Part shown: in pieces, positions 2,978-31,600 of the stretch
Position numbering within the stretch: position 1 is the first letter of the stretch
Layout: each line of letters starts with the position of its first letter
Source of the DNA: Candidatus Omnitrophota bacterium
Lineage (GTDB): Bacteria > Omnitrophota > Gorgyraeia > Zapsychrales > JANLHA01
DNA length: 32,000 bases
Assembly: GCA_963662715.1 (NCBI GenBank)
Contig: OY759724.1
Location: 2,580,001 to 2,612,000, forward strand
Direction: 5' to 3'
Position numbers and translations under genes: made by a program
Notes under the pieces: generated by a model
The model's input: only the letters and a program-made list of their open reading frames with translations
What the model was told of the DNA's origin: nothing
The model's database searches: none

Positions 2978-3004
2978 TGTCCCTAATCCGGGAGGAGTTT
3001 ATTT

Positions 3005-8832: not shown

Positions 8833-8890
8833 GCAAAACAGAAGAAATTGGCAAGGATGGCTTGAATCATTTGAATTCTAGGAGGTTCAT

Positions 8891-9613: not shown

Positions 9614-9636
9614 CCTAAGAACGGGGACTTGAATTT

Positions 9637-11205: not shown

Positions 11206-11300
11206 CCTGGCCGGCATATCAGCGATATTAAATTATGAATCTCAGGGCAGATTTGATAAATTGACTAAAAAAAGTTCCTGAACATCAAGATCATCAAGTC

Positions 11301-12044: not shown

Positions 12045-12112
12045 AACCCAGTTTTCATATAAGAAGCTGTTGCTAAGATAAAAGTTAACATCATTAAACA
12101 GGAGGCATTCCT

Positions 12113-12952
12113 ATGTTTAGAGCTATCGGGAAACTTTTCAAAACGATCGGTTACGCTCTGACCGGACGGATTAATGAGATTAGTGAAATTTGGGGAGAGG
12201 ATCCTTATGTCGTTGGTGAGAAATACAACTCCATCCTGGAGGAAAAGAAGGCCCGTTACCAGACGATTACCAGGGCTGTTTCCCGTCTCATGACGTCCTT
12301 GGACAAGAAGAAGAAACAACTGGAAGCGTACCGGCAACAGGCCGAAGCAAAAGAGAAGATGATGAAGGGGGCTAAGATTGCGGGACAAAAACGTGCGCGG
12401 GAGTTAAAAAGCCAAGGGATGACAATTGAGAAGATAAAATCCGATGAAAAGATCAAGGAATTCGCCGCAAAACGAAATGATGCCAGCTCTTCGTTGACCC
12501 TGTTGCAGAACGACATTAGTAATCTTGAGACGGAAATTGAAGAAGATACCCGGGAGCTGAAGTCCTTTGAAAGGGATATCAAGCAAATGCAGCGGGAGTT
12601 TGAAAACTTGCAGCAGGAACGGGACCGGGCCATCGCCAAAGTCGCTTCGGCCAAGGAGAGAAAAGATCTATATGAGATGAAGGCCGGCATCAGTAATGAT
12701 GAGACGGCAGAGCTTTTAAAAGAGGTGAGGGACTCGGTCAGTAATGTGGAGAATTTAACCAAATTGGCTGCGAAAACGTCAGGCTATGAAAATAAGGCCG
12801 AGGAAGAAGAATTGATCGCGCTCGCAGAGTCAGGAGGTGAAGAGGAGTTTTTCAATGAGATCGGATTGAGCGAGGACCCAACGCTTTCTGCCGACGTCGA
12901 AAAGAAAGAGAAACCCAAGGTGGCAGAGGGCGGAGATCAGTATCAAGAATAA
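12113..12952 (+). CDS. PspA/IM30/Vipp1-family (ESCRT-III superfamily) coiled-coil protein
   Basis: SD GGAGG lies 7 nt upstream. The N-terminus MFRAIGKLFKTIGYALTGRINEISEIWGEDPYVV aligns by eye with E. coli PspA [29 protein letters not shown] (amphipathic helix followed by the EDP motif). Then ~200 aa of coiled coil and an acidic tail (EEEELIALAESGGEEEFFNEIGLSEDP). Confidence 0.7.
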   Translation: MFRAIGKLFKTIGYALTGRINEISEIWGEDPYVVGEKYNSILEEKKARYQTITRAVSRLMTSLDKKKKQLEAYRQQAEAKEKMMKGAKIAGQKRARELKSQGMTIEKIKSDEKIKEFAAKRNDASSSLTLLQNDISNLETEIEEDTRELKSFERDIKQMQREFENLQQERDRAIAKVASAKERKDLYEMKAGISNDETAELLKEVRDSVSNVENLTKLAAKTSGYENKAEEEELIALAESGGEEEFFNEIGLSEDPTLSADVEKKEKPKVAEGGDQYQE

Positions 12953-15945: not shown

Positions 15946-17679
15946 ATGAAAGCACCGAAATATGATTTTCTTCTTGAAACGGGACGTGTGTTGAATTCTT
16001 TGGAATCCAGTACGATTGTTTTGACGGGAAACGTGCACGATCATTTTTATGTCTCCAAGACAGATAATTACGTGCCGCTTGTTGATTTCATGAAAGAGAG
16101 TATGAGCTTAAGCACCAATGTCATTGTGACGTATAAAATTACCGGGAAGATCAAATTTCAGAATGAACGCGATTTGAAATCGTTTGCCGGCGCCTGGGAA
16201 TATTGGCGTTACGAAACAGAATTTGAAGACGATTTTATGACACTGTGCCAACGGACAGCCGGGAACGTGACTTATGCTTTGGAATTGTTGCGGCAGATGT
16301 GTCTGTGTTCCAATGCCGTAGATGCCAACGGGCTTCCGGTTTTTGAAAAGAAACTTTTGATTATCATCGAAGCCGTGGAAACGATTGTCCCTTCCGGCCC
16401 GGTAAGCCATTTAAACGATAGCGAACGCATGCGTCTGCAGATATGTCTGGACTGGTTTAAAGATCCGGCTTTCATGGAAACGAGCGATGCGGTCATCCTT
16501 ATTGCGGAATCAAAGGGCATGATCAATCCTGTGATCGCCCGGCTTCCTCACGTGATTGAAATAGGTGTGCCTTCGCCGGATACGGAGCAAAGGTTTCATT
16601 TTATCGAATGGTTTAATAAGAGACAGGACAGAAAACAAAAACTCAAACCGAGCCGGAAAAAGAAAAATTTGTCGCAGCTCACGACCGGTTTGAGTATCCT
16701 CGCTTTGAGGCGGCTTCTTAAAAGCACTGTTCATAAAGGCGGGATGATTCAGGAAGAGGCTGTCAACCGGGAGGTGAAGCGTTTCATTGAACGGGAATTG
16801 GGTGATATCGTGGAGTTTAAAGTCCCTGCGCATAAATTGACGGATGTCGTTGGGTGTCATGTCATAAAAAAATATGTTCAGGACAAAGTCATCCCCAGGT
16901 TCACGAGTACGGAGAAAGATTGCCTCCCGGGGGCCACGATTTGCGGACCGATCGGGAGCGGAAAAACATTCTTTTGGGAAGCTGTCGCGGCGGAATCGGG
17001 CATGATTGTTCTGGTCCTGCGGCAATTGAGAGACAAATGGTTTGGGGAAAGCGACGTGCGGCTTGAACGCTTGCGGCGGATTCTATACACCTTTGTCAAT
17101 GTGCTGGTGTTCATAGATGAGGCTGATACCCAGTTCTCCAATCTTGGCGAAGGGGAGATCCATGCCACAGAGAAACGGATTCAAGCCGGTCTTTTAACCA
17201 TGATGTCGGATCCCCAGCTTCGGGGAAAAGTGAAGTGGCTCCTTTTGACAGCCAGGATCGACAGGCTTTCGCATGATATGCTAAGACCCGGCCGCCCGGG
17301 AAGTCTGATTATCCCGATGCTGGATCCTCACGGGAAGGACCGGGAGTCTTTCGCCTGTTGGGCGGTCACTCCTGTTTTGGAGAAAAAACCGGATAAACAG
17401 ACCATGACGGAAATTTTAGATTTAACAAAAGGATATTTTGCCGCTATGTTTTCCGAGTTGCGGTCTGAATTGCTGGCCGAAGCCAAAGGAAAGACATTGA
17501 CCCTTCCTGCCGTTAAATCGATTATCCAGGATATCGTTCACCCGGCCATAGGAAAGACAAGAGAATATCAATCCTTGTGTGCAAAAATTTATTGTAACAG
17601 GCGCAGTCTTCTTCCTTCGAAGGAAACCCGGGAGGACTGGCAGAGCCGTCTGAAGGAATTGAAGTCATCCATGAAATAA
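15946..17679 (+). CDS. Classic-clade AAA+ ATPase with a degenerate N-terminal AAA-like half
   Basis: 577 aa. C-terminal half: Walker A GPIGSGKTF (nt ~16945-16968), LRDKWFGESDVRLERL (compare kyvGEse..vr), Walker B VLVFIDEAD (17101-17127), and an SRH-like block LLLTARIDRLSHDMLRPGRPGSLIIPMLDP. The N-terminal ~235 aa repeat the same strand/helix rhythm without a P-loop: IVLTGNVHDHF, LLIIIEAVE, VILIAESKGMINPVIARLPHVIEIGVPSPDTEQR. Confidence 0.85.
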   Translation: MKAPKYDFLLETGRVLNSLESSTIVLTGNVHDHFYVSKTDNYVPLVDFMKESMSLSTNVIVTYKITGKIKFQNERDLKSFAGAWEYWRYETEFEDDFMTLCQRTAGNVTYALELLRQMCLCSNAVDANGLPVFEKKLLIIIEAVETIVPSGPVSHLNDSERMRLQICLDWFKDPAFMETSDAVILIAESKGMINPVIARLPHVIEIGVPSPDTEQRFHFIEWFNKRQDRKQKLKPSRKKKNLSQLTTGLSILALRRLLKSTVHKGGMIQEEAVNREVKRFIERELGDIVEFKVPAHKLTDVVGCHVIKKYVQDKVIPRFTSTEKDCLPGATICGPIGSGKTFFWEAVAAESGMIVLVLRQLRDKWFGESDVRLERLRRILYTFVNVLVFIDEADTQFSNLGEGEIHATEKRIQAGLLTMMSDPQLRGKVKWLLLTARIDRLSHDMLRPGRPGSLIIPMLDPHGKDRESFACWAVTPVLEKKPDKQTMTEILDLTKGYFAAMFSELRSELLAEAKGKTLTLPAVKSIIQDIVHPAIGKTREYQSLCAKIYCNRRSLLPSKETREDWQSRLKELKSSMK

Positions 17680-17719
17680 GTGATACGATTTCTGATGTCA
17701 TAAAGACCTGGGATGCACA

Positions 17720-19144
17720 TTGCGTATATTGCTTGTAAATGTTGGCCGTCGGGCACAGTTTCCGCAATCCATATCTCCTCCTTTAGGAATTATGTGCTTG
17801 GCCGCGTATCTTCGCAGCAAATTTAAGGCCGAGATATGTCTGATTGATCAGCTGCTGGATAATTGTCTCAATCATCGTCTTGTCAAAAGGATTTCGGATT
17901 TCAGACCGGATGTCGTGGGCCTCAGCAGCATTATTCCGACCGCCCACAATCTCCCCGACCTTTCCCGGCAAATACGGACGGCATTGCCCCGCTCCCTGAT
18001 TGTGGTCGGTGGAGGATACGTTTCTTCTATCGGATCCCAGACCCTGCAGACAACCGCCGCTCATGTGGCTGTCCCCGGTGAGGGAGAACGGGCTTTTGAA
18101 GAAATCCTTCATGCCCGCCTTGATGGAGGGGGCCTTGCGCATATCCCCGGCATTCACTGGCGTGATCAGTATGATCATGTCGTGTCTAACCCCGGTGAGC
18201 GGTTATATATTGAAGACCTGGATTCTCTTCCCTTTCCGGCCTATGATTTGATTAACCTTCCGGGGTACTGGAAACATCAGTCATTTTCTTCCATCATCAA
18301 AAACAGATATCTTTCTCTTTACAGCAGCCGGGGCTGTCCCTATCAGTGCAGTTATTGTCACCGTATCTTTGGCCGCCGGTTCCGTTTTCATTCCGCCGCA
18401 AGAATTGTGGAGGAAATTAAATATTTTAAAAAGTTTTATCCTATTGATGACGTGGAATTTTTTGATGATATCTTCAACCTCAATCATCAAAGAATTTTTG
18501 AGTTCTGTGATCTGCTGCAGAAAGAGGGCCTGAGGCTTAAATTGTCTTTCCCCAACGGTGTGCGCAGCGATATCCTGACGGAGGAAGAACTGCGTGTCCT
18601 GATTGATGCCGGCTTGTATTTCTGCAGTTTTTCGCTGGAGTCCGGCTCCCCTCGGATCCAAAGATTGATCGGCAAAAACCTTGATATTCAGAAATTTTTA
18701 AAAATTGTCGAGAGCGCGGCAAGACAGGGTGTTTTCTGCAACGGTTATTCCATGCTCGGTTTTCCGACAGAAACGGAAGCGGAGATAAGACAGACGATTG
18801 ATGTCGCCTGTGGCTCCAGACTTCATACATGCTCTTTTTTTACCGTGACCCCGTTTCCTAATACAGATGTTTTTAACAACGTTATGCAGACAAATCCGGA
18901 AAAGCTTTCCGGAATCTGTTATGACGATATGGAATATTCCACGCTTCACTGCAATGTTTCTGATGTCCCGGATGAAACATTATTTTCACAGCAGCGCAAG
19001 GCCCACAGGAGGTTTTATTTGACGCCCAGCCGTATATGCCGCATACTCAGAGATTATCCTTCGCCGCGATCATTGCCTTTGATTCTGCCTGTTTTACTTT
19101 CGAGACTCACAAAAGGTCTCTTTCCCCGGAACCCTTCTGCTTAG
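17720..19144 (+). CDS. B12-binding-domain radical SAM protein (class B rSAM)
   Basis: TTG start; there is no in-frame ATG near the N-terminus. The N-terminal Rossmann-like block ILLVNVGRR...PPLGIMCLAAYLRS...DVVGLSSI is typical of the cobalamin-binding domain. Radical SAM cluster motif SSRGCPYQCSYCH (CxxxCxxC, nt 18335-18358). Confidence 0.88.
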   Translation: MRILLVNVGRRAQFPQSISPPLGIMCLAAYLRSKFKAEICLIDQLLDNCLNHRLVKRISDFRPDVVGLSSIIPTAHNLPDLSRQIRTALPRSLIVVGGGYVSSIGSQTLQTTAAHVAVPGEGERAFEEILHARLDGGGLAHIPGIHWRDQYDHVVSNPGERLYIEDLDSLPFPAYDLINLPGYWKHQSFSSIIKNRYLSLYSSRGCPYQCSYCHRIFGRRFRFHSAARIVEEIKYFKKFYPIDDVEFFDDIFNLNHQRIFEFCDLLQKEGLRLKLSFPNGVRSDILTEEELRVLIDAGLYFCSFSLESGSPRIQRLIGKNLDIQKFLKIVESAARQGVFCNGYSMLGFPTETEAEIRQTIDVACGSRLHTCSFFTVTPFPNTDVFNNVMQTNPEKLSGICYDDMEYSTLHCNVSDVPDETLFSQQRKAHRRFYLTPSRICRILRDYPSPRSLPLILPVLLSRLTKGLFPRNPSA

Positions 19145-19284
19145 CCGATCCTAAAAGGCGGGGGAGAAGGCAGACTTGGGAAGAAAGTGCTGCTTATTTA
19201 AGCGCAAAGAGTTTATAATACTTTACAATAGAAAACGTCGTTAAAACTTATGAATTTTATTGTCGACATAACCGGAATAAAAAC

Positions 19285-19581
19285 ATGACCTTCAACTGTC
19301 CTTATTGGAGAAACAGAAAATGTGCCGGAGTGCACGGGGATTATAAAAAGCCTTGTTCATTTGATAAGCCGGAATATTATCATTGCCCGGACTATCATGC
19401 CGTTAAAGCCAGACTTGACCGCCCCCGCAAGAAAGATACTCCTCCAAAACCAGAACCTCTTAGTGAAAAACAAACCGCCGCTGGGCCGAAACGGCGTCTT
19501 TCCCGGGAGGCTTTGGATGCCCTTTCAAAAAGATATTTCAGTCCCAAACCCAAAAAGAAATGGTGGGAATTCTGGAAATGA
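19285..19581 (+). CDS. Small Cys-rich, Lys/Pro-rich basic protein, unknown function
   Basis: 98 aa. N-terminal four Cys (C5, C13, C24, C34: NCPYWRNRKC...PCSFDKPEYYHCPDY) suggest a metal-binding knuckle. The C-terminal half is basic and ends KPKKKWWEFWK. The RBS is weak. A perfect TATAAT (19214-19219) lies upstream. A competing ORF in another frame (19322-19594) is less protein-like. Confidence 0.45.
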   Translation: MTFNCPYWRNRKCAGVHGDYKKPCSFDKPEYYHCPDYHAVKARLDRPRKKDTPPKPEPLSEKQTAAGPKRRLSREALDALSKRYFSPKPKKKWWEFWK

Positions 19582-20174
19582 ACGGGCGTTTTAATCTCTC
19601 CGGCCTTCGTCTGATCAATATTATGAACGAAGAGAAGATGGCCCCTCTGCTTTAAAACAGAGAGGCCGGATATGCACCTGATTGTTTTTAAAAAATAATT
19701 TTGTAACAAAATGGTGTGTTTTGCGTAAGATATAGTAGCACAGCAGTACTCAAGGATATCCCAGATAACGCTTGGCCCGGTGGCGCTGTCTCTCCCGGGA
19801 ATGGTTTTTTTCGTGAACGCTTATTATGGGATATGGAGTGAGACGGCTTTTATATTTTGCTGATAGATCCTGGGAGATTGTTGTCAGGATATTTGTCAAA
19901 ATTCTTTATTTTTGTTTCTAACCAGAAAACCCTTGATTCCCTGACGCTATCATGATTGAATATTTATACTATTAATATTCAGATTATAGGAATAATTCCT
20001 TGCATAATATCCTTATCCGAAAATGCATTCTGCCAGAATGCTGGTGGAAGATGACTTCCGTGGTAGAGTTTGAGAAATAAATGACATGATCCTGCCTTTT
20101 TTCAGAACATTGATTAACATAAAAATTTTTTTCAAAAATAAAAATACTCGCGAAGGACAGTCCTGCGTATTGAC

Positions 20175-20190
20175 TGACAAATATCTGTCA
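20175..20190. promoter_or_regulatory. Inverted repeat TGACA-N6-TGTCA about 100 nt upstream of the first giant gene
   Basis: TGACA at 20175-20179 and TGTCA at 20186-20190, read directly from the sequence. It overlaps a TTGACT hexamer (20170-20175). This is a candidate operator only; no cognate regulator is identified. Confidence 0.25.
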
Positions 20191-20286
20191 AACAGGTGGG
20201 GAGTTGTTTTTCTAAATAACAACTGAAGATAACTGCCGTCTTGGGCGTTTATATTTAAGGACATAACAACATTCTTGGAGGATGAT

Positions 20287-23200
20287 ATGAAAAAACGTAT
20301 TCTTGTTTCCTTGGCCCTTATCCTTTTTTCATGTGCAGTTTCCCCTGCAGAAGTATTGGCTGAAGGCCAGCAGACCTGTGCTGCACCTGCCATTCTGGCC
20401 GAACAGCAAATTTATGTCCCTTACGAAGATCTTAAAGAGGTCTTGGGGCAAAAGGAAAAGGGGATTTTCCTCCCGCATTCTGATTTCCTGAAGTTGTGGG
20501 AGAAAGCGACTAGGAAACCTCCGGAAAAGATTCTTCCTCCTCCGCCCGTTGAGGCAGCTATTATTCATGCAGAATATAAAGGAACCGTTTACGAGGATAT
20601 CGCGGAATTTCATGCCAAAATGAAGGTTTCAGCCCTTAAGAAAGAATGGGCGAACCTTTTCTTGAATATTCAGGATATTGCCATTACATCTTTATCCTTG
20701 AACGGGACGACGCCTCTTTTAAAACCGGTGGACGGGGGGTTGCTGCTTATTTTGCCGGAAAAAGGAGATTATGAACTTGAGCTTGATTTCTCGGCGCGTG
20801 TCAATACATCCCCCGGAGAAAAATATATCGATTTCCGGATCCCTTCTTCACCGCTGACAAAAATCGATATGACCATCCCGGGGAAGGATCTGGACGTGAA
20901 AGTCGAACCGATGCTTTCTCAAAAGAGTCAGGTCGTTGGCAATAATACGGAATTTTCCGCGTTCCTTTCCCCGGAAGGTATCGTCAATGTCAGATGGCTG
21001 GCTAAGTCGACAGAGAGCAAAGCTGATAAAAGTCTTATATTCGCAAAACTCTTCAGTGAGTTATATGTCAAAGAGTCCGTATACCTGCTTAATACGCAGA
21101 TTAGTCTTTCTGTCATGCAAGCCAAGGCGGATTCCTTTAAGGTAAGAATCCCCCGGGAACTAAGTTTGGTGCGGGTTGACGGTAAAAATATTAAAGATTG
21201 GGAGATGGCCGAAGATGGTGTTCTGAGCGTGAATCTGTATGAGGAGATTGAAGGGGATTATGTTTTCTCCGTGCTCACGGAGAAATACCGCGACTTAAAT
21301 GAAACATCGTTCGCTGTGCCGCAATTCGAAATCGTAGATGCGAAACGGGAAGACGGAGAAATTATTATCAAAGCAGATCCTTCTCTGCGGGTTAATGTCG
21401 AGAAAAAAGACCGGGTGACGCAAATCGATCCCAAAGAACTGCAGGGCCGGATAACCTTTGAAGAATTTGTGTCCGCTTTCAAATATTTCAGGCGTCCGTA
21501 TTTCGTGAACCTCAGTATTTCCAAGATTCAGCCTAAAATAAGGGCGGAACAGAATATTTTTATTTCCTTCTCCGAAACGATTATTGACTACCATACCAAT
21601 ATCCATTTTAAAATAAAAGACGCCGGTCTTTTTAAATTCCGGTTTCTCATCCCTGATCATTTCCGGATCGCGGAAGTCGGAACAGATGCCACGGTCGACA
21701 GTTTTGCGGTTTCCCGGGAGGAGGGGCAGGATATTTTGACTGTTGTATTGAAAAACAAAGCTTATGGGGATTTCTTGTTGCCGATTCATTTAGAGGCCGA
21801 TAAGGAAGACAAGGATGTCGATCTGGCCATGCCTAAACTGCAGTGCCTGGATGCCGAGAAGGAAGAGGGCGTCATCGCTCTTTCTCTGCGGAAAAATCTC
21901 AAGCTTTCCACGGAGGCCATTAAATTTCTGCGGCCGATAAGTTTGGAAGAACTGCAGATGCAGGGGATACGGGATGCCGATATTAAGAATGAGATTGCGG
22001 CGGGATACCGGTATTCCACGCCGGATTATTCCTGCCAGTTGAAGATTGACAAGCGAAAGACGAAGATCATTGCTAATGTCGAGAGGAATGTTGACATTGA
22101 GGAAGCCGTTATGAAGGTGAATGATGTCATTCATTATAATATCCTTTATGCTCCGGTCAGTTTGTTTAAAATTGAACTGCCTCTTGCCATAGCCAAAGAG
22201 GCTGTCATCAGCGGCCATAACATCAAAGAAAAGAGGTTTATAAAAGACGAACAGACCAAGAGGGGAATATGGGAAGTCGAACTGCATTCCCCGGTGCTGA
22301 ATCAATTCACACTTAACGTCAATTTGGAAAAGAAACTTCCGTCCATCAAGACCGGGGAAAAAAGAATAATTCATATCCCCGGCATCCGGGTGCTTGATGT
22401 TTTTAATGAATCAGGATACATCTCTGTGGCTAAGAGTCCCAATCTTCAAGTCGAAGCCCAAGAGAACAACCTTGAGCCTATAGATGCGAAGGAACTTCCT
22501 TCAACGATAAACCGCAGCCAGAGCATTTTAGCCTTCCGGTATCTCAGCCATCCGTATTCTCTGGCCCTGGAAACCACAAGACATGAATACGAGAAGGTGC
22601 TTGATGCGATCGTTAACCAGGCTCACTTCGATATTGTTGTTTCGAATGAAGGAATGGCGAAGACCGAAGGGGTTTTTAAAATTCAAAATACGAACAGGCA
22701 AAGCCTTGAATTGATGCTGCCCCCGGGGACCGACAAAATTTACTCTGTTTTTATCTCCGGGAAGAAAGCCAGCATTTCCCGGGGCAGTTCCGAAAGGAAC
22801 AAGATCATCATGCTGCCCAAAGACATAACGCCCGGGCAGGAGTTTACTTTAAGAATCATCTATCAGACAAAATTCAGGTCTGCTTTTGGATTTATCGGAA
22901 GCCTCCGGGCGGAGAACGCTGAAATCATGGATATCCCCATTTCAAAGATCACCTGGAGAATTTATCTTCCATCCGAATACAGCTACATTTATATGGCCGG
23001 ATCAGTGAATCCCGCCACTGCCGGCTATTATTCCTTTGATACTGTCAATCAGGGCCTCCGCTCACAGAGGGTCCATAGCCAAAGAAAGATAACCTTAGAT
23101 ACGGCCCAGATCCCTCAGCAGAATGATGAAAGTGCTCTATACGGCCTTGACATTGATATGGTGCGTGAAGGCCGGATGTTTTCTTTTTCGAAATTGGATA

Positions 23201-23535
23201 AAGAAGCTTTTCTCAATATCCTGTATATGAAGAAAAATGTCCTGTTGCCTTTAAGCCTCATGATTGTTGGGTTGACGGCATTTTTCTTGACAACTGTCAT
23301 GCGCAAAAAAGATATCAACAGAATGAAAGTGGGGATAATTTTCTTGGGCACGGTTATTGTTTTGCGTATATTCCTGCCGCAAGGCTTTAAATATTTCATT
23401 TCCCTCATTCTTGCGGGGACGGCCCTTACCGGAGGCGCGTTTCTTGTCTATTCTCATTATAAAGGAAAGACGTATTTCCGTAAGACGGGCAAGGATATGG
23501 AGACAGTCAAGAAAAGCGAGCAGGAAAAGAAATAA
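20287..23535 (+). CDS. Giant envelope protein, module copy 1 (1082 aa): signal peptide, large extracytoplasmic region, C-terminal 3-TM anchor; uncharacterised family
   Basis: GGAGG at 20277-20281, 5 nt before the ATG at 20287; the ORF-track TTG at 20275 is less likely. Signal peptide MKKRILVSLALILFSCAVSPAEVLA|EG. C-terminal helices: VLLPLSLMIVGLTAFFLTTVM, VGIIFLGTVIVLRIFL, YFISLILAGTALTGGAFLVYS, then a basic tail. Codon-level coherence holds over 3.2 kb. Confidence 0.85.
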   Translation: MKKRILVSLALILFSCAVSPAEVLAEGQQTCAAPAILAEQQIYVPYEDLKEVLGQKEKGIFLPHSDFLKLWEKATRKPPEKILPPPPVEAAIIHAEYKGTVYEDIAEFHAKMKVSALKKEWANLFLNIQDIAITSLSLNGTTPLLKPVDGGLLLILPEKGDYELELDFSARVNTSPGEKYIDFRIPSSPLTKIDMTIPGKDLDVKVEPMLSQKSQVVGNNTEFSAFLSPEGIVNVRWLAKSTESKADKSLIFAKLFSELYVKESVYLLNTQISLSVMQAKADSFKVRIPRELSLVRVDGKNIKDWEMAEDGVLSVNLYEEIEGDYVFSVLTEKYRDLNETSFAVPQFEIVDAKREDGEIIIKADPSLRVNVEKKDRVTQIDPKELQGRITFEEFVSAFKYFRRPYFVNLSISKIQPKIRAEQNIFISFSETIIDYHTNIHFKIKDAGLFKFRFLIPDHFRIAEVGTDATVDSFAVSREEGQDILTVVLKNKAYGDFLLPIHLEADKEDKDVDLAMPKLQCLDAEKEEGVIALSLRKNLKLSTEAIKFLRPISLEELQMQGIRDADIKNEIAAGYRYSTPDYSCQLKIDKRKTKIIANVERNVDIEEAVMKVNDVIHYNILYAPVSLFKIELPLAIAKEAVISGHNIKEKRFIKDEQTKRGIWEVELHSPVLNQFTLNVNLEKKLPSIKTGEKRIIHIPGIRVLDVFNESGYISVAKSPNLQVEAQENNLEPIDAKELPSTINRSQSILAFRYLSHPYSLALETTRHEYEKVLDAIVNQAHFDIVVSNEGMAKTEGVFKIQNTNRQSLELMLPPGTDKIYSVFISGKKASISRGSSERNKIIMLPKDITPGQEFTLRIIYQTKFRSAFGFIGSLRAENAEIMDIPISKITWRIYLPSEYSYIYMAGSVNPATAGYYSFDTVNQGLRSQRVHSQRKITLDTAQIPQQNDESALYGLDIDMVREGRMFSFSKLDKEAFLNILYMKKNVLLPLSLMIVGLTAFFLTTVMRKKDINRMKVGIIFLGTVIVLRIFLPQGFKYFISLILAGTALTGGAFLVYSHYKGKTYFRKTGKDMETVKKSEQEKK

Positions 23536-23536
23536 T

Positions 23537-26500
23537 ATGGAGAACAGGACAATGAAAAAATGTTTTTTATTCCTTTTTTGTTTTTGTGTCTTTTGTTCTT
23601 TTTGCTCGCTGTCTTTCTCAGAGGACATGGCCCGGGAATATACCCCCTGTAGAACAGAAGAAAAAGCAGTATCGAGGACACCCCGGGAAACTTTTTTAGC
23701 AAATCCGGTGCCTCCCGGGGAAGAGGAGGCAGATATCGCAAAAAGCCGGGAGACAATCCTGATCGTGCCTTCAAGAGAAATGAAAGCTATCCTCGATATT
23801 GAAGGCGAAGGGCTTTTTATCCCCTTTGCAGAATATACTCACCTTTATGAGAAGGCGAAATTGGAATATATTAAGAACAAGAATGCCGAGAAAATTCCCG
23901 ATGATGTTAAGGGCCCGGTGATCGTGCAGGCTAATTATTATGGTTCCATAGAAGGTGATGTCCTGAAGTTCTCCGCCGACTATGATATTGTCCAAAATGC
24001 ACAGGGCCCGGAGAGTCTGAATTTCCCTTTGCAGGGGGTTTCTTTTCTCCAGGCAACACTTGAGGGGCGAAAAGTGCTTGTTTATGAACAAGATCAAGCC
24101 CCAAGAATTATTATCCCCGGACCGGGAAGTTTTAACCTTAAAATTGATTTTTTTGTGCCGATAAAATATAAGGACAAAATAGGGCACCTTTCTTTTGATA
24201 TCCCTCAGGCTTTGCTCGGGAATATCGTTATAACGGCAGACCTCTTTTATGATATCCGTTTTCGAAATCTCCTTTTTTCCTCCAAGAAACCAGCCGATGA
24301 GAAGGTGATGTTTTTCGGTTTTATAGGTTCGGCGGAGACCGTGTCTTTGGATATCACGAACCGTCGGTCTGCCGGGGAAGAAGACGTAAAGATTATTTCC
24401 CGGGAAGAACACAGGGCTTTTTTGAACCAGGACCTCATTGAGCAAACTGTCGATTACCACCTTGATGTCCAGAACGGAGAAATCCCTGGGGTGAATATCA
24501 CGATCGATAAAAATATCCATGTCCACGATATCTCCGGTCCGGGACTCTCTGGCTGGACGAGAGAAGAGGCCGGGACTCATGATATCCTGCATCTCAACTT
24601 CCATGTCCCGATCAGCGGGAAGACCGATTTTTCTTTGAAAACATACCAGTATTTAACCGCAGAGGCAGACAAGTTCCTCTTGACCGATATGCAGGTCGAG
24701 GACCTTTTTGAAAGACAGGGAACGCTTTCTGTCTATTATGATGAGAATGTCAGGGTCGATACCCAATCGGTCCGATACTTGCAGCCTGTCATCGGCTATC
24801 CGGAAGACCAGAATGTCCCGGACCGTTTCACGCTTTATCGGCAGTGCCGTCTTTTCAACCTTCCCTATGAGATGACTTTGTCCCGAGAAGAGATGCCGGA
24901 CCAGATTGCCGTGTCTCAGAATAATCAAATGCAACTTGATCAAACCAAGCTTTATTTTCAGTCTGAAATCATATTATCCGGACTTGCTCAGGGCACGACA
25001 CGATTGGCTTTCGAATACCCTGAAAATTATACCTTAAATGAATTTCATGCATTTGTTAACGGGCAGGCTGTGCAGGAGGACCATAATCTCAAAGACAGCC
25101 TATTGACGGTTGACGTGAGGCACCCGATCAGCCCCAAAGATGTTATAACCATGCTCATTCATAGTGAAGAACTCATAAACGAAAACTCATTTAAAAAGGG
25201 CTCTCAGACTATCAGCATTCCGGTTATCACCTATCCGCAAACCGCGAAAATGACGGGACGGCTGCAAATCAGCATTCATGAGATGTTCCTTTTAGAGGAC
25301 ATTATCTTGAAAGGGTATGCTCCGGCTCAGGACATTTTTGTCCCGGACTCAAATCAGGAAGAGAATAAAAACCTTTTCTATCATTTTAAGTCCCTTTCTC
25401 CGGAGGGGAAAATCCTGCTTTCGGCCCGGAAAGCCGAACAGACGTCCAAAACAGTCACTTATGTTGCTGTTGACGAGGACCTTTTCCAGGGCAATGTTTA
25501 TCTGCAATATCATATTAATGCAGGGAAAAAGGATAATTTTTATTTTGCGATTCCGCGTTGGGAAGAAAGCAAGATCAATATTCAGGGTGATCATATAAAA
25601 GAAAAGAAAAAGATTGGCCCCGCTCGCATTCAGGATATCATCCCCGCGGCCCGCCTCTCTGAATTAAGGAACTATGATATCTGGAATGTCGTCCTGCAAA
25701 AAGAAGTCATCGGAGATTATTTCCTTGAGATTGATTATCAGAAAAAAATAAAACAGTTTGGAACGCTGTTTGATATGCCTTTGATTGTCCCCCTTGATGT
25801 TGTCAATGATACAGGTTATGTTGTCCTTGAAGCCAGCAAAAACACAGCGATTAATACGGAGAAAAAAGGCCTCAATGATATTGAAACTTATGAAATCCCT
25901 AAATGGCCGTCCTATAAACCTTCCAACCGCATCATCGAATCTGTCCGTTATTTCACGAGACCTTTCATGTTTAAGATCGCGGTTAAGCGAATGGATGAGT
26001 CCCCGGTCCTGGCCTCCATCGCGGAAAAGGAAAGTCTTTCTTATACTTTTGGGAAAGATTCGCAGGTCTTTTTTGAATGCGATTATATCATCCGGAACAC
26101 AAACCTCCAGTTTCTTAAGATCCAGCTCCCGGAGGACTTTATTTTCTGGGGCGCCACGCTGAAAGGCAAAGGCATTAAACCCCGCAAGGGGCCGGATAAC
26201 CTTTTGTTTATCCCTCTCCCGGCAGAGAGCGGGCAAAACCTTTCCCTTCGTCTAACCGGCCAGATTTCCAGGAAAGGCCGTCAAAGCCTGTGGGAATCTT
26301 TTCACCTACAAAGTCCGAAACTGAATATCCCGTGTTTAGAATCACAAGTGGCCATTTATTTTCCGCAGGAATATTCTCTCCTTCATATAAAGGGGAATTT
26401 TGAGAAATTCCCGGAGCCGTCTTACCAACAGCCTGTTCTCGTATCCTTTTTAAGGAATGTTTTTTCACCTCTCTTAAAAAATTTGGGAATGCTTTTTTTC

Positions 26501-29500
26501 CCAAGCTATATTAAACGGGGAGTCCAGGGCCGGCTAAAGTCAGCGGCAGATGATATCGGTGAACAATTCAGCCCGGGGACCCAAATGCTCCAATCGAGAA
26601 TTCGTGATGCGGGTCAGTACATGGTTCAACAGGAAGGGGACCCCAACCTGGGACAGTCTGTCCAGTATGAACCATATTATTTGGAGACAGATTATGATGT
26701 CCAAAGGTCTGAGATGACGACTGTCACCCAGAACGCTTTAATGGAAGAAGAGGAAAAAGAAGAACATCCTGAACCAGCATTTGCCGCAACTAAGGATTAT
26801 CATAAGAAAAAAGGAATCCTCTCTTTGAATATTGATATTCCGAAAGAAGGAGAATATTTGTTTTTACATAAACTTTGGGGAGACAGCCGTCTCAATGTGA
26901 CATTTATTTCTGACGTTTGGAAGAAAGTCCTGAGTTTGTTCTTTATGTGTTTTTTCGTCTTCCTCGGATTCTCCCTGCGAGAAAAACGGATTTTGTCCCC
27001 CAACATGTTTCTTTTGTTGACCCTTGTTTTATGTACGTTTATCCCTTTACTGTTTTTCAAGTCTTATGTTTTCATTTTTAACGGAGCGGTCCTGGGGGCC
27101 GTGATGTTTATTGTCATTCTGTCTTTCACGGCTAAATTTAAGAAATTTTTGAAGAAATGCGGCGTGATCATAATCGCTGTTTTTGTTTTGCTGCCGTTGG
27201 GTACGGTTCTCTCAGAGAAACCGGCTTCTGCCGAGCAATTATCCGATGAGAGGTCTTCACCGTCGAGATGCCCCGTCCAAGATCATTTTTCTGAAGAGCA
27301 GGAAGAAGTCCTTTTCCCGGATGTCCGTGTTTATGTCCCGTATAACGACAAAAAGACTTTGCCTCCGGACAAGTCTGGTAAAGTGTATGTCCCGACTCAA
27401 GATTATTTCCGTTTAAAACTTCTCGCGGAGCCGCCGTATAAACCGGAAGATGATTTCCAATACAAAAACCCCTTCGATATCACCGGCTTATCCTGCCATG
27501 GCATTCTTGAGGGCGACCGCGTTGTGTTTTCAGCTTCCCTGGATATTTTCGTCAATAATCATGAATGGGCTCTTATCGGTTTACCTTTTCATCATATTGT
27601 TGTTGAAGAGTTTAAAGCGGACGGGGAATCGGTCCCCGTTAAAATAAAGCAGATATCCTCCGAGGGTATGCAGAATAATCTTCAGAAGTCTTGCCTTATC
27701 CCCCCCAAAAAACTTGATATTTACGAAATTCCCGTTTATGGATTTGGTTATCATTCTGTTGACTTGACTTTTTATGTCGAATTAAAATCACTGCTGGGAA
27801 AGAAGACCTTATCCTTCGGCTTCCCGGAGACGCTTTTCGCCGATTTCTCCTTGAATTTGAACGGTCAGGAAGTCTTTCTTGAATTCGAAGAGCCGGGGGA
27901 ATCTTTCTATGTTGATGAGAGTAGCGGGTCCCCGATTCTTAAAGCTTCGCTCTCCGGGAAGTCTGAAGTTAGAATTTCCTGGTTCCCGAAGAAATACCTT
28001 AAAAAGACCGAGAAACCGCTTATTTATGCAGACTCCGAAATCGACATGCTTCTTGGATATGATGAAATTATTATTTCACAAGAAACAAAAATCAGGGTTG
28101 AAAAGTCTTCTCTGGCATCCCTCAGTTTTTATAAAGATCCGGATGTCGTTGTCATTGATGTTTTTTCAGATAAGGTTAAGAATTGGCAAGTCAGGGAGGA
28201 AGACGGACATGATATCCTGGATGTCATCTTTAAACATGAAGTCACGGATGCCGCTGACCTGCTCATCAAAGCAAAACGCAACTGTCTGCCCGAAATGGCC
28301 GCCCCGGCGATATTTTTCAGGCCGCTGGATGCCAAAAGAATTCATGGTCATCTCAATCTTTTTGCCCCTAAAGATTATAAGGCCGTTGTGACAAAAAGCC
28401 GTAACCTTAATGTGGCCGCAATAAAAGAAGGCCGGCCCAGGGAAATTTCCGGTTTTCAGCTCCAAAAAAGTTTTTCTTTCCTGGGCGGGGACTTTAGTGC
28501 CGAGATCGAAAGGCGTCCGGAAGAAAGAAAAATCATGGCAGATATTTCCTCGCAGCATATCCTTTCAGAAGACCGGAGTGTGTCCCGCTATAATATCGCC
28601 ATCGATGTTCTTAAAAATTCTCTTACCGCATTAAATATCCGGTTGCCGGAAGGTCAGAAGATCAACTCAGTGAAAGCCGATAATACTTCAGATTATATCC
28701 TCAAAGACAATGTCGTTACTTTACCGCTGAAGAGTGCCGTCAAAGGGAGATTCTCGGTGGAACTGGAAACGGAGCAGGATATTGATGAATTTCATTCGGC
28801 TTTGATCGAGAGCATCGACCTCCTTGATATCCCCAAAATCACCGGGACGGCGGTCATCCTGTTTCCCCGAGGATTTGAAGTCATGGAATCGGATATCCAG
28901 GGGCTGAGATCTTCGAATATTGAGAGCGTGTTTGAACGGGTCCCGCAGGTCCGTGATATGTCATTCGGGGCAAAATATGCTTATACACTGCGGGAAAAAC
29001 ATTATAAAGCCATCTACAATATTTCTAAAAAAGAGGCGTCGCTGGATGTGATTAAAATTTATCATTCCACAGTGAAGGATAATCTTGTCAATGTGCAGCT
29101 ATTATGTATATTTAATATAAAGAATGCTCCGGTTGATCATTTTGATATTATCGCTCCGGCTGAACTCCGGGATTCCATAAAAGTTGAAGGTGAAGGCCTT
29201 AAGACTGTTCTTAAAAAAGAAACGGATGAAGGAAAGCATGTTGTCCTTACGGTAAATACCTTAACCCCGATAGACCATTCTTACATGCTTCAGGTCTCTT
29301 TTAATAAATACTTCGGAAGTGATAAAATTTTCGAAATGCCGTCCATTATTTTCCCGCAGGTGGCCAACAGGACAGAATTTGTTTCCGTTGAGGCCGACAC
29401 GGTTTATCATGTTAAGCCCCTGACCGTTCAATCGCTGCATGAAACCGAGCCCGACATGATCCCGGCTTTACCGGAGGGGATTGATCTCAATAATATCCTC

Positions 29501-31600
29501 TGGTCTTATCGGGCTTCCGGGGCCTCGGCCTGGGCGTACAGCCTGAAACTTGTGAGGCTGGAGAGAGAAAAACTTGTGAAGGCTAAAATACTGCGAGAAG
29601 ACATCAAAACTCTTATTATTCCCAATGGTTATGCCTTGCATGAAATTATGCTTAAGGTCAATAACCGCAGTTTGCAGTTTCTCCCTGTCACCTTGCCGCG
29701 TGAGGCGTCTCTCTGGAGCCTGAAGGTCGCCGGGGAGCCGGTCAGAGCTTCGGTGAACACATCAGGAGAGAAGAATGGCGCGGCCCAGTATTTGATCCCG
29801 CTTATTAAAAGCGGATCGGGCGACAGAAATTTTGATATCATGATCGTCTATATAACTCCCATCAAAGAATTCGGTCTTTTTGGGCATGTCAAGCTGGACA
29901 TGATGGCTACCGGGGATGTCCCGATTGAAAAAACAACATGGTCCTTATTTGTCCCGGATAACTATTCGGTGTTCAAGTTTAACACGAACATGGAAGAAAT
30001 CGATCTTTCGATGATCGAAGCGGAAAAAACCCTGGATTTAGCTAAAGAGTACAAGTACTGGACCCATTTTGCCAGTACGGCTAAAGGGGAGTTGAAAGAA
30101 AAGGCGCTGGGGAACCGGGAGCGAGTCATGAGTGATTATACGAAACAGCAGGCGCTCAGTCAGAGGATGCAGACAGACTTAAACGTGAGGGAGGGCAATA
30201 AGAATTACAACCAGGCCCTTATTCAGGAAGCCAAGTCGCAGAATTCTCAGATTCTTAATGAGGCTTCCAATATCATTGCCCTGAATAAGCCTGATTCCAA
30301 GATTATGAACGGGAAAAAACAGCAGCCGGCTAAACAAGCTCTTGCGAATAGAAGACAGGTTAAAGGTTGGCAGTTTAAAACGAATGATTTTGCCGGTGAA
30401 GAGCAGGTCGAACGTTCTATCACGAATTATTTGCAGCAGGAAGACAGAAAAAAAATGGCACAGCATAAAAGGGCAGAACAGAGAACTCGAATGATGAAAA
30501 GGGAAGAAGTGTACGGCGGCCGGGATAAGGTTTCGACGGAAGTTCATGATCAGTTGGTTTTAATGCAGGGCCAAAATCTATCCGATTCTTCTGTGGCCGC
30601 CACGAATGAGAATGTGATTCTCAATGGAGACATGCGGCAGGCTGATTATGAACAAAGCCTGCGGATCCGAGAGAAAGGGCGTCGTGTGCCGGAGAGGGGA
30701 TCTCAGGTTTCTCAGTGGTCCTCTGCCTCTGCGCTTGGTTCCCAGACAGAACCGGTGTTTGGGTACAAACAACCTGCCCCTCTGCCGGAAAGTTCCGGCG
30801 TGTCCTCGCGGGGAACCGGGGCGTATCGTGAAACTCCCCTTGAATCGGGGCGGCAGGATTCTATGGAATATTGGGGTGACGCGCTGGATGAAAAAACCGA
30901 ATCAGAGGCCAAACCGTTCATCCAGATTTTTCAAGGGAAGGCGCCGGTGCAGAAGAAAAGCGCTTTGTTAAAAGGGCGCCGGTCCATTGACATCCCTATA
31001 CCGGAAGAGGGAAGACGGTTCTCTTTTAAAAAACTTGGCGGCAACCCCACTTTGAGTTTGGTATACAGGAAGAACGAGAGCCTGTCCAAAGTTTTTCTCC
31101 TGCTGTTGTGTATTGTGGCCACAGCCGGGATATGGAACGTCCGCACCGTCCCGTGGCCTTCCGACCGAGTACGCATGATGGTTTGCCGGGTTAAACCTAA
31201 GGGCTGGTTTTTTTTTATCGCTGATGCACGTATTGTCAGGATCGCCACTTATACCCTGATGCTGTTTGCGGTGATCTTTCGGTCGCCGCTTTTTTTCATA
31301 ACTTTGGGTTTTACGAGTATTTTTCTTTTAAGATCTATTTCCCGGAAGCGGTACAAAAAACTCGGATGTGTCCCTCAATATAATAAGAAACAATTCATGA
31401 AATATTTTCTTTCTTATCTGATCCTGATTTCCTCCCTGTTAAGCCTTTTTCACCTGGGCTTCTTAGTCCTGGTCGGCATTTCCACAACGATGAATTTTAT
31501 TGTCGCATTCATCTACGGGGTTTTTATTTTTCTGGCCCCCGGGAAAGCAAATTTCGGAGGGGAAACAGAACCCCCGGGCCAGGACAAGAAAGAATTGTAA
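23537..31600 (+). CDS. Giant envelope protein (2687 aa) made of module copies 2 and 3, joined by a 4-TM hinge; uncharacterised family
   Basis: The ATG at 23537 lies 1 nt after the upstream TAA (23533-23535). An alternative ATG at 23552 is preceded by GGAG. Signal peptide MKKCFLFLFCFCVFCSFCSLSFS. The ORF-track start at 23357 is only an open-frame extension into the upstream gene. Each half repeats the landmark order of the 1082-aa protein (see findings). The C-terminal ~5 TM helices lie at nt ~31090-31550. Confidence 0.85.
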   Translation: MENRTMKKCFLFLFCFCVFCSFCSLSFSEDMAREYTPCRTEEKAVSRTPRETFLANPVPPGEEEADIAKSRETILIVPSREMKAILDIEGEGLFIPFAEYTHLYEKAKLEYIKNKNAEKIPDDVKGPVIVQANYYGSIEGDVLKFSADYDIVQNAQGPESLNFPLQGVSFLQATLEGRKVLVYEQDQAPRIIIPGPGSFNLKIDFFVPIKYKDKIGHLSFDIPQALLGNIVITADLFYDIRFRNLLFSSKKPADEKVMFFGFIGSAETVSLDITNRRSAGEEDVKIISREEHRAFLNQDLIEQTVDYHLDVQNGEIPGVNITIDKNIHVHDISGPGLSGWTREEAGTHDILHLNFHVPISGKTDFSLKTYQYLTAEADKFLLTDMQVEDLFERQGTLSVYYDENVRVDTQSVRYLQPVIGYPEDQNVPDRFTLYRQCRLFNLPYEMTLSREEMPDQIAVSQNNQMQLDQTKLYFQSEIILSGLAQGTTRLAFEYPENYTLNEFHAFVNGQAVQEDHNLKDSLLTVDVRHPISPKDVITMLIHSEELINENSFKKGSQTISIPVITYPQTAKMTGRLQISIHEMFLLEDIILKGYAPAQDIFVPDSNQEENKNLFYHFKSLSPEGKILLSARKAEQTSKTVTYVAVDEDLFQGNVYLQYHINAGKKDNFYFAIPRWEESKINIQGDHIKEKKKIGPARIQDIIPAARLSELRNYDIWNVVLQKEVIGDYFLEIDYQKKIKQFGTLFDMPLIVPLDVVNDTGYVVLEASKNTAINTEKKGLNDIETYEIPKWPSYKPSNRIIESVRYFTRPFMFKIAVKRMDESPVLASIAEKESLSYTFGKDSQVFFECDYIIRNTNLQFLKIQLPEDFIFWGATLKGKGIKPRKGPDNLLFIPLPAESGQNLSLRLTGQISRKGRQSLWESFHLQSPKLNIPCLESQVAIYFPQEYSLLHIKGNFEKFPEPSYQQPVLVSFLRNVFSPLLKNLGMLFFPSYIKRGVQGRLKSAADDIGEQFSPGTQMLQSRIRDAGQYMVQQEGDPNLGQSVQYEPYYLETDYDVQRSEMTTVTQNALMEEEEKEEHPEPAFAATKDYHKKKGILSLNIDIPKEGEYLFLHKLWGDSRLNVTFISDVWKKVLSLFFMCFFVFLGFSLREKRILSPNMFLLLTLVLCTFIPLLFFKSYVFIFNGAVLGAVMFIVILSFTAKFKKFLKKCGVIIIAVFVLLPLGTVLSEKPASAEQLSDERSSPSRCPVQDHFSEEQEEVLFPDVRVYVPYNDKKTLPPDKSGKVYVPTQDYFRLKLLAEPPYKPEDDFQYKNPFDITGLSCHGILEGDRVVFSASLDIFVNNHEWALIGLPFHHIVVEEFKADGESVPVKIKQISSEGMQNNLQKSCLIPPKKLDIYEIPVYGFGYHSVDLTFYVELKSLLGKKTLSFGFPETLFADFSLNLNGQEVFLEFEEPGESFYVDESSGSPILKASLSGKSEVRISWFPKKYLKKTEKPLIYADSEIDMLLGYDEIIISQETKIRVEKSSLASLSFYKDPDVVVIDVFSDKVKNWQVREEDGHDILDVIFKHEVTDAADLLIKAKRNCLPEMAAPAIFFRPLDAKRIHGHLNLFAPKDYKAVVTKSRNLNVAAIKEGRPREISGFQLQKSFSFLGGDFSAEIERRPEERKIMADISSQHILSEDRSVSRYNIAIDVLKNSLTALNIRLPEGQKINSVKADNTSDYILKDNVVTLPLKSAVKGRFSVELETEQDIDEFHSALIESIDLLDIPKITGTAVILFPRGFEVMESDIQGLRSSNIESVFERVPQVRDMSFGAKYAYTLREKHYKAIYNISKKEASLDVIKIYHSTVKDNLVNVQLLCIFNIKNAPVDHFDIIAPAELRDSIKVEGEGLKTVLKKETDEGKHVVLTVNTLTPIDHSYMLQVSFNKYFGSDKIFEMPSIIFPQVANRTEFVSVEADTVYHVKPLTVQSLHETEPDMIPALPEGIDLNNILWSYRASGASAWAYSLKLVRLEREKLVKAKILREDIKTLIIPNGYALHEIMLKVNNRSLQFLPVTLPREASLWSLKVAGEPVRASVNTSGEKNGAAQYLIPLIKSGSGDRNFDIMIVYITPIKEFGLFGHVKLDMMATGDVPIEKTTWSLFVPDNYSVFKFNTNMEEIDLSMIEAEKTLDLAKEYKYWTHFASTAKGELKEKALGNRERVMSDYTKQQALSQRMQTDLNVREGNKNYNQALIQEAKSQNSQILNEASNIIALNKPDSKIMNGKKQQPAKQALANRRQVKGWQFKTNDFAGEEQVERSITNYLQQEDRKKMAQHKRAEQRTRMMKREEVYGGRDKVSTEVHDQLVLMQGQNLSDSSVAATNENVILNGDMRQADYEQSLRIREKGRRVPERGSQVSQWSSASALGSQTEPVFGYKQPAPLPESSGVSSRGTGAYRETPLESGRQDSMEYWGDALDEKTESEAKPFIQIFQGKAPVQKKSALLKGRRSIDIPIPEEGRRFSFKKLGGNPTLSLVYRKNESLSKVFLLLLCIVATAGIWNVRTVPWPSDRVRMMVCRVKPKGWFFFIADARIVRIATYTLMLFAVIFRSPLFFITLGFTSIFLLRSISRKRYKKLGCVPQYNKKQFMKYFLSYLILISSLLSLFHLGFLVLVGISTTMNFIVAFIYGVFIFLAPGKANFGGETEPPGQDKKEL
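26927..27232 (+). other. Internal 4-TM hinge of the 2687-aa protein; the fourth helix has full Sec signal-peptide architecture
   Basis: Helices: VLSLFFMCFFVFLGFSL, (REKRILSPN), MFLLLTLVLCTFIPLLFF, VFIFNGAVLGAVMFIVILSF, (TAKFKKFLKK), CGVIIIAVFVLLPLGTVL, then SEKPASA|EQ. The basic loops fall on alternate sides, which fits the positive-inside rule. An even helix count puts both large domains on the same (extracytoplasmic) side. Confidence 0.6.

Follow-up and report, generated by a model that had tools for sequence, protein, structure and literature searches.

A 32,000-nt segment of a Candidatus Omnitrophota genome (assembly GCA_963662715.1, contig OY759724.1, positions 2,580,001 to 2,612,000; hereafter the window) contains at positions 20287–31600 a locus that is best explained as a self-contained two-gene cassette for three inner-membrane proteins, paralogues within a very widespread family that has no name. 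Gene A encodes module 1, and gene B encodes a fusion of modules 2 and 3, whose two halves (B1 and B2) correspond to 23537–27232 and 27233–31600. The genes are separated by a single nucleotide, with the TAA stop codon of gene A at 23533–23535 and the ATG start codon of gene B at 23537, and a 1-nt gap makes their co-expression likely, as an initial annotation of this DNA had proposed. The locus occupies 35.4% of the window (about 35% in that annotation), and the open reading frame (ORF) coordinates and the single-nucleotide gap are as first described.

The product of gene A and both halves of the gene B product are true paralogues. BLASTP alignments score 153 bits for A and B1 (E 2e-41, 909 aa, 20% identity), 130 bits for A and B2 (E 3e-34, 934 aa), and 63.5 bits for B1 and B2 (E 1e-13, 849 aa), compared with a maximum of 24–28 bits for shuffled controls (30 per partner), and pairwise identity among the three is 18–22%. 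The modules thus share one order of landmarks as originally claimed, and the motifs then quoted lie at the positions given for them and within aligned columns of the pairwise alignments. Tandem Repeats Finder reports no DNA-level tandem repeat at the locus, and the duplication or triplication is therefore old. When the modules are compared across phyla by BLAST, module 1 shows clear orthology (E 1e-105), module 3 is orthologous by ranking (E 1e-39), and the ranking for module 2 is ambiguous. A neighbour-joining tree separates the three modules of each lineage into clades of their own, all with 100% support.

All three modules follow a common plan, in which a signal peptide is followed by a conserved stretch of ~35 aa (the N-terminal peptide), then by five beta-sandwich domains, and finally by a linker, a juxtamembrane beta-hairpin and a transmembrane (TM) helix bundle. 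The five beta-sandwich domains comprise an N domain, three homologous repeats of ~175 aa (R1 to R3 in module 1), and a C domain. The features are as follows, with domain limits derived from hidden Markov models (HMMs), structure prediction and hydropathy; an arrow marks a predicted cleavage site, and pLDDT is the predicted local distance difference test score of the structural model.

20277..20281, + strand: Shine-Dalgarno sequence GGAGG, 5 nt 5′ of the gene A start codon, read from the sequence
20287..23535, + strand: gene A, module 1, 1082 aa, the best conserved of the three modules
20287..20361, + strand: signal peptide of A, probably cleaved by signal peptidase I at VLA↓EG (hydropathy scan)
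20410..20508, + strand: N-terminal peptide of A, IYVPYEDL...GIFLPHSDFLKLWEKA, with P45, P63, F67 and W71 nearly invariant
20539..21018, + strand: N domain of A, beta-sandwich, aa 85–244 (HMM block; all-beta, block-mean pLDDT ~78–90)
21028..22584, + strand: three repeats of A, R1 248–415, R2 416–590 and R3 591–766 (hhalign, model, Foldseek)
22603..23004, + strand: C domain of A, aa 773–906, with terminal motif KITWRIYLPSEYSY (model and HMM block)
23005..23166, + strand: flexible linker of A, aa 907–960 (pLDDT <50 at 907–941)
23167..23232, + strand: juxtamembrane beta-hairpin of A, EGRMFSFSKLD..., strands 963–970 and 975–982
23233..23466, + strand: TM bundle of A, three helices, with a Lys-rich cytoplasmic tail after it (hydropathy scan, model)
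23537..31600, + strand: gene B, modules 2 and 3 fused, 2687 aa
23537..23635, + strand: signal peptide region of B (hydropathy scan)
23756..23857, + strand: N-terminal peptide of module 2, ILIVPSREMK...FIPFAEYTHLYEKA, aligning with the motif of A
23918..26395, + strand: module 2 ectodomain (B residues: N 128–276; repeats 285–448, 456–582 and 636–818; C 845–953)
26396..26812, + strand: module 2 linker, with GNFEKxP, RGIQGRLKSAxDDIGDQF and VQYEPYYLE conserved in the Omnitrophota orthologues compared
26813..27142, + strand: hairpin of module 2 (IDIPKEGEYLFLHKL), then three TM helices (alignment, hydropathy scan)
27143..27232, + strand: relic signal peptide of module 3, internal to B (hydropathy scan; n/h/c regions)
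27323..27427, + strand: N-terminal peptide of module 3, VRVYVPYNDKK...VYVPTQDYFRLKLLA (alignment with A)
27488..29983, + strand: module 3 ectodomain (B residues: N 1318–1486; repeats 1493–1657, 1664–1818 and 1845–1992; C 2024–2149)
29984..30976, + strand: module 3 linker, 331 aa, E/Q/K/S-rich (composition count)
30977..31555, + strand: hairpin of module 3 (IPIPEEGRRFSFKKL), then ~5 TM helices in a bundle (alignment, hydropathy scan)

This plan is derived from an AlphaFold2 model of A built on 33 homologues (mean pLDDT 79.9) and from profile comparisons. In the model, residues 90–905 are all-beta, as the first description of a beta-rich stretch had anticipated, with block-mean pLDDT mostly 80–93 and one low block at ~241–247; residues 907–941 are disordered (pLDDT <50), and a beta-hairpin at 963–982 precedes three C-terminal helices. 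The segments ~246–415, 416–590 and 591–772 of A are mutually homologous (hhalign probability 99.1–99.7%, E 5e-19 to 4e-27), and the N (85–245) and C (773–906) domains are weakly related to each other (hhalign probability 70%). HMMs of the A blocks recover the same N, three repeats and C in both halves of B, with independent E-values of 7e-13 (N), 4.5e-16, 1.2e-6 and 1.3e-24 (repeats) and 1.6e-15 (C) in module 2, and of 6e-12 (N), 8e-15, 4e-13 and 8e-16 (repeats) and 4e-18 (C) in module 3, such that the locus as a whole has nine copies of one ~175-aa domain. Modelled alone, the R2 repeat gives a pLDDT of 93.6 and a predicted template-modelling score (pTM) of 0.87. The N-terminal peptide of A is unstructured in the monomer model (pLDDT <60), and its conservation across phyla is far above the overall identity of ~26%; it reads IYVPYE-L-EV...G-FLP-S-FLKLW in Omnitrophota-type sequences and IFVPFEKLEEVF...GVFLPYREFLELW in those of Verrucomicrobiota. 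Within the hairpin of A, G962 is nearly invariant and L970 is invariant.

The signal peptide of A is not of the lipoprotein type, because its orthologues have AxA-type sites and the signal-peptide cysteine is not conserved. A hydropathy scan identifies three TM helices in A, three in B1 followed by the relic signal peptide, and approximately five in B2, matching the bundles of three to five helices noted initially, and the loop charges deduced from the sequence agree with the positive-inside rule. The fourth hydrophobic segment after the three TM helices of module 2 corresponds to the relic signal peptide of module 3, which has a KFLKK n-region, CGVIIIAVFVLLPLGTVL, and then a SEKPASA↓EQ c-region. 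This internal signal peptide is predicted to bring the chain back to the periplasm, and the fusion is therefore topologically coherent. The n/h/c layout and a small residue at -1 are kept in 9/9 of the fused orthologues compared, and most of the nine have a small residue at -3 too. The predicted cut (ASA↓EQ) falls exactly between 27232 and 27233, the point at which the initial annotation had divided the protein. We infer that gene B encodes a module 2–module 3 polyprotein that would be separable by signal peptidase I. Signal-peptidase processing of flavivirus polyproteins is an established precedent for cleavage of this kind, and to our knowledge a polyprotein with an internal cleavable signal peptide is unusual in bacteria; this apparent example is thus of wider interest.

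The family is large. A word-indexed search returned 42 homologues, none of which has a precomputed Pfam domain and all named ones of which are 'hypothetical'; those with 46–70% identity and a name are mostly labelled Omnitrophota, Aureabacteria and Desulfobacterales, and the others are 19–26% identical, with one labelled Chthoniobacter. Gene A is 61–68% identical to its Omnitrophota orthologues, 46% to that of Desulfobacterales, and ~26% to Verrucomicrobiota module 1. An exhaustive profile search yielded 10,136 cluster representatives (50% identity) at E ≤1e-3, 3,923 of them at E ≤1e-30, and the best 150 of the 10,136 matches are mostly either ~1100–1300 aa or ~2200–2800 aa long. Seeding with the Chthoniobacter protein found 125 further hypothetical proteins, the few named ones being labelled Verrucomicrobiota (Chthoniobacteraceae, Prosthecobacter, Verrucomicrobiales), and repeating the homologue search with a profile added almost nothing. 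Taken together, the members that carry names belong to Omnitrophota, Verrucomicrobiota and Desulfobacterales, and 'hypothetical' is the annotation of every one. No homologues were found among plasmid and phage sequences.

A related-locus scan with a single protein identified eight Omnitrophota loci, and in most of the loci read the modules co-occur, the module-1 gene leading. In Omnitrophota (L003, L007–L008 and L010–L014), in Desulfobacterales (L005) and in L017, the module-1 gene precedes a gene in which modules 2 and 3 are fused; L017 is a 2-Mb contig, and its module 1 shares 46% identity with the Chthoniobacter protein. Three separate module genes are present in a Chthoniobacter metagenome-assembled genome (MAG; L001) and on another contig (L006). 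The related loci contain no conserved counterpart of any of the other 18 ORFs of the window, and by this comparison the module cassette is the only conserved part of the neighbourhood. The cassette costs each carrier genome ~11 kb, and this cost together with its conservation implies a conserved and probably important envelope function.

Some relatives have acquired additional domains. In Verrucomicrobiota-type fusions the module-2 linker, between the C domain and the hairpin, has two extra TM helices and one inserted domain. One example is P0064 (locus L015), in which residues 1103–1201 form a pseudopilin-like insert (Pfam T2SSG, E 5e-25), and P0057, P0081 and other Verrucomicrobiota-type relatives have a pseudopilin or secretin-N/Amuc_1098-like insert after the two TM helices; P0057 also has a canonical prepilin-peptidase-like site, G↓LRLVE. 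Among 18 regions scanned (14 of them linkers), DUF1559 was detected in 5 and NCBIfam GspG in 6. Single relatives have a secretin-N/Amuc_1098-like domain in the module-2 linker (E 1.5e-27), TPR repeats in the linker, or a linker match to the NCBIfam 'MXAN_5187 family' (E 1.6e-6), a name not traceable in the literature, and some have MORN repeats before module 3. No such linker inserts are present in the window proteins or their Omnitrophota orthologues, and Pfam and NCBIfam detect no GspG/DUF1559 pilin-like domain in the window proteins. The inserts are protein-protein interaction modules, in keeping with a scaffold that can accept extra binding domains in the linker next to the membrane. We note separately that P0064, P0069, P0071, P0087 and other two-module relatives share a conserved N-terminal domain of ~230 aa (residues 1 to ~240, 'QTLINVDFG...LNGLQI') with no Pfam or NCBIfam match. 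Two candidates were set aside. A degenerate pilin-like helix ('GMLFFPSYIKRG') in the module-2 linker of the window was dropped after hhalign against Verrucomicrobiota linkers aligned the hairpin only (probability 18%), and a GIY-YIG nuclease match (E 9e-11) at the N-terminus of the module-2 gene of L001 (13404–13640) most likely reflects an over-extended gene call.

The initial annotation could assign the modules to no family that it could name, and our searches agree. With Pfam at E ≤1, A, B1 and B2 have only chance matches below gathering scores (DUF5038, E 0.015; DUF3461; OSTbeta), NCBIfam at the same threshold has no matches for the window proteins, and over 33 family members there is no convincing Pfam match, the only signal for Peptidase_M1_N being in one of the 33 (E 0.074). 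The PADLOC anti-phage defence models do not match, PDB sequence and profile searches gave nothing meaningful, and we found nothing on the family in the literature. HExxH, GxSxG, CxEQ, LPxTG and RGD motifs are absent from the window modules, adhesin domains (cadherin, BIg, RTX, YadA, haemagglutinin, autotransporter) give no significant Pfam or NCBIfam match, and no type I secretion system (T1SS), type IX secretion system (T9SS) C-terminal domain, PEP-CTERM or LPxTG signals were found; the lack of a catalytic motif, adhesin repeat or sorting signal noted at the outset is therefore corroborated. The invariant and near-invariant columns are mostly P, G, W, Y, F and L, which argues for structural rather than catalytic constraint. 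Nor is there a whole-module match to any of the three families that the annotation had put forward as possible identities: the BatD profile (PF13584) has no match at E ≤1 in A, B1 and B2 or at E ≤0.1 in the 33 members, and the Pfam profiles of DUF4139/DUF4140 (MuiA-like) and of the alpha-2-macroglobulin (A2M) and MG domains match neither the window modules nor the 33 members. VIT and VWA profiles are likewise without a match in the window modules or the 33 members, the Pfam Peptidase_M1 profile has none in A, B1 and B2, and neither the Ribophorin_I profile (PF04597) nor the solved OST1/RPN1 chains show sequence similarity. The family and its architecture are without a name or description in the databases and literature searched, and the fold class is known.

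That fold class emerges from structural comparison. In a whole-chain Foldseek search of the PDB the top six matches are ribophorin I/Ost1 (6s7o_E, 6ezn_A and 8b6l_O among them; E 5e-10 to 9e-9), with alignments that cover nearly the whole target and target-normalised template-modelling scores (TM-scores) that are low, at 0.25–0.35; lower matches include integrin alpha legs, ITIH1, M1 aminopeptidases and, weakly, complement and TEP proteins. With R2 as the query, the top match is the N-terminal domain of LTA4 hydrolase/M1 aminopeptidase (E 6.5e-6, TMq 0.55–0.58), and ribophorin I (E 5e-5) has the best TMq (0.60–0.62, rmsd 5.4–5.5 over 221 columns). M1-like and inter-alpha-trypsin-inhibitor (ITI)-family proteins, including a Fadolivirus ITI-family protein, also match R2 in a viral structure library. 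The modelled repeat therefore belongs to a known fold class that includes the M1-peptidase N-domain, ribophorin I and VIT-like domains, with similarity at the level of fold only. The repeat shares the ribophorin I lumenal fold, but this class is common to M1-N and VIT and the resemblance is thus not specific. The description of the modules as being of a 'new type' consequently stands for the family, which is unnamed, and not for its repeat.

The reading that we prefer, to which we give slightly less than an even chance, is that the modules form a non-enzymatic, hetero-oligomeric periplasmic scaffold or tether on the inner membrane, as suggested by topology, conservation and co-encoding. Export by Sec, structural conservation, co-encoded and repeatedly fused modules, and the lack of conserved partner genes point to a self-sufficient non-enzymatic hetero-oligomer, and the recurrent fusion of modules 2 and 3 suggests physical association and a fixed stoichiometry. 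Each module would be exported by Sec via its cleavable signal peptide and would form a five-domain periplasmic rod of beta-sandwiches, with the three ribophorin-I/M1-N-like repeats between N and C. A flexible linker, differing in length between modules, would tie the rod to the juxtamembrane hairpin and the bundle of 3–5 TM helices. The three modules would most likely assemble at ~1:1:1 into a hetero-oligomer reaching towards the peptidoglycan and the outer membrane, with the conserved N-terminal peptide at the distal tip as a putative docking site; for gene B, the internal signal peptide would re-export module 3 and would probably be cut by signal peptidase I. The membrane-anchored periplasmic scaffold in the initial annotation fits this predicted topology.

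Several observations weigh against this reading, in whole or in part. The whole-chain pTM is only 0.41, and the rod-like arrangement and its length are therefore tentative. The absence of catalytic motifs does not prove the absence of catalysis. Loci L015 and L016 represent a variant clade with a two-module gene and no adjacent module-1 gene, and a strict 1:1:1 trimer is therefore not universal. The deep nodes of the neighbour-joining tree are weak (bootstrap 6–50%), so we make no claim of proven cross-phylum orthology for modules 2 and 3, and a single ancient triplication is suggested by the BLAST ranking alone.

None of five alternative explanations is favoured. The similarity to ribophorin I raises the prospect that the modules are OST1 relatives or analogues and act as a ribophorin-I-like accessory, a periplasmic scaffold that would hold substrates next to a translocon or to an enzyme transferring lipid-linked glycosyl groups or polymers. 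The two share their gross topology, and ribophorin I/Ost1 provides both the six best whole-chain matches, over nearly the full target span, and the best single-repeat TM-score, but we consider this rather unlikely given the low target-normalised TM-scores, the equally good matches of the repeat to M1-peptidase N-domains and VIT-type proteins, and the lack of a sequence signal to Pfam Ribophorin_I or any PDB chain. Moreover, glycosyltransferase genes, STT3/PglB-like or other, are not conserved beside the cassette. In the loci read, the ~10 kb around it contains no STT3-type oligosaccharyltransferase gene. It is quite unlikely that the modules are instead a functional analogue of the BatD/VIT-VWA envelope complexes, working with VWA and TPR proteins. 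The gross plan of BatD is similar and the repeat fold resembles inter-alpha-trypsin-inhibitor/VIT proteins; a VIT-VWA gene (17322–19703) lies directly 3′ of the two-module gene of L016, one relative has the TPR repeats described above, and the window has a VWA gene at 8891–9613. That gene, however, is 11 kb from the cassette and absent from the related loci, the 33 members match no BatD, VIT or VWA profile, and the MoxR ATPase, DUF58 and BatA/B/C set is missing from the window neighbours and from the related loci read.

The surface adhesion apparatus that the initial annotation inferred, suited to an attached, epibiotic or predatory lifestyle, is in our view very unlikely. The proteins are large, beta-rich and exported, their closest relatives are in Omnitrophota, and integrin alpha legs are among the fold matches, but these have TM-scores of only 0.10–0.17, and the anchors are alpha-helical TM bundles with positive-inside topology, with nothing to carry the proteins across the outer membrane and none of the autotransporter, secretion or sorting signals or adhesin repeats listed above. 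The lifestyle proposal is unsupported because the family (10,136 cluster representatives) is common in MAGs labelled Chthoniobacter, Prosthecobacter and Desulfobacterales, lineages known as free-living. We give an equally low probability to an accessory platform of a type II secretion system (T2SS) or type IV filament (T4P) machine. The GspG/DUF1559-like and secretin-N/Amuc_1098-like domains and the G↓LRLVE site of Verrucomicrobiota-type relatives argue for it, but the window proteins and Omnitrophota orthologues are without an insert, no T2SS or T4P gene adjoins any cassette examined, and pilin-like domains are very abundant in Verrucomicrobiota and may have been co-opted. An A2M-like periplasmic protease trap is effectively refuted: the modules have a long string of beta-sandwiches, and complement C3/C5 and TEP1 appear in the Foldseek list, but with probabilities of 0.18–0.33 and TM-scores of ~0.07, and there is neither a CxEQ thioester motif nor an A2M or MG Pfam domain.

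Approximately 1.1 kb of mostly non-coding sequence precedes gene A, and the leader immediately upstream (19600–20286, ~690 nt) is AT-rich and non-coding, with no Rfam match and a promoter scan no better than for shuffled sequence. A terminator scan was also no better than shuffled sequence, Rfam gave no matches, and there is no gene-length ORF 3′ of gene B in the rest of the window. A small Cys/His-rich ORF of 98 aa (MTFNCPYWRNRKCAGVHGDYKKPCSFDKPEYYHCPDYH...; 19285–19581, + strand) lies in the 1.1-kb gap and has no counterpart in the related loci. Just 5′ of the locus are genes for an AAA ATPase (15946–17679) and a B12-binding radical SAM protein (17720–19144); in L005, from Desulfobacterales, a B12-radical-SAM gene likewise occurs ~6 kb 5′ of the cassette, probably by coincidence since its identity to that of the window is only 22%. 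A same-strand cluster at 6828–12952 comprises NMT1/OmpA-like (6828–8663), VWA (8891–9613) and OmpA-like (9637–11205) genes and two ORFs without a Pfam match (11301–12044 and 12113–12952), and may be a separate envelope system. At the left end of the window (20–3907) there is a Znu/ABC-3-type metal uptake operon with an ABC ATPase, two ABC-3 permeases and a ZnuA-like binding protein.

The cell biology of the phyla concerned (e.g. Omnitrophota and Verrucomicrobiota) is poorly known, and definition of the family would close a sizeable annotation gap and offer a target for cryo-electron tomography and genetics in cultivable Verrucomicrobiota. A bolder version of the scaffold reading, which we regard as unlikely, is an unrecognised and phylogenetically widespread envelope apparatus of diderm bacteria, a hetero-oligomer in which three paralogous ribophorin-I-like rods connect the inner membrane with the wall or the outer membrane and the repeat is homologous to eukaryotic ribophorin I. 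If this were true, a subunit of the eukaryotic oligosaccharyltransferase (OST) would gain a bacterial relative. The similarity in fold to ribophorin I is of wider interest for the question of how OST accessory subunits arose.

Among known systems, ribophorin I/Ost1 resembles the modules in having a signal peptide, tandem non-cytoplasmic beta-sandwiches and a C-terminal membrane anchor, and a catalytic site is absent from both. Ribophorin I has two beta-sandwich domains and one TM helix, whereas the modules have five domains, a bundle of 3–5 helices, and three co-encoded bacterial paralogues, with no nearby oligosaccharyltransferase gene and no sequence-level relation found. BatD has a signal peptide, a beta-rich exported part and a C-terminal TM anchor, and is similar to the modules in gross architecture, but they are about twice its size or more, are triplicated, and have neither a BatD profile match nor a Bat/MoxR operon context. 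Integrin alpha legs (thigh and calf) likewise consist of many beta-sandwiches in a row before a membrane anchor (Foldseek E ~1e-8), although the low TM-scores and the lack of a detected FG-GAP propeller in the modules make the resemblance generic. The VIT domains of inter-alpha-trypsin inhibitor heavy chains match at the level of fold (6fpy/6fpz and the Fadolivirus protein), but in contrast to VIT-VWA proteins the modules have no VWA domain. The N-domain of M1 aminopeptidases and LTA4 hydrolase shares the fold of the repeat, as the top R2 match and the viral M1-like proteins indicate, but the modules lack the HExxH catalytic domain, and the domain is here tandemly repeated and tethered to the membrane.

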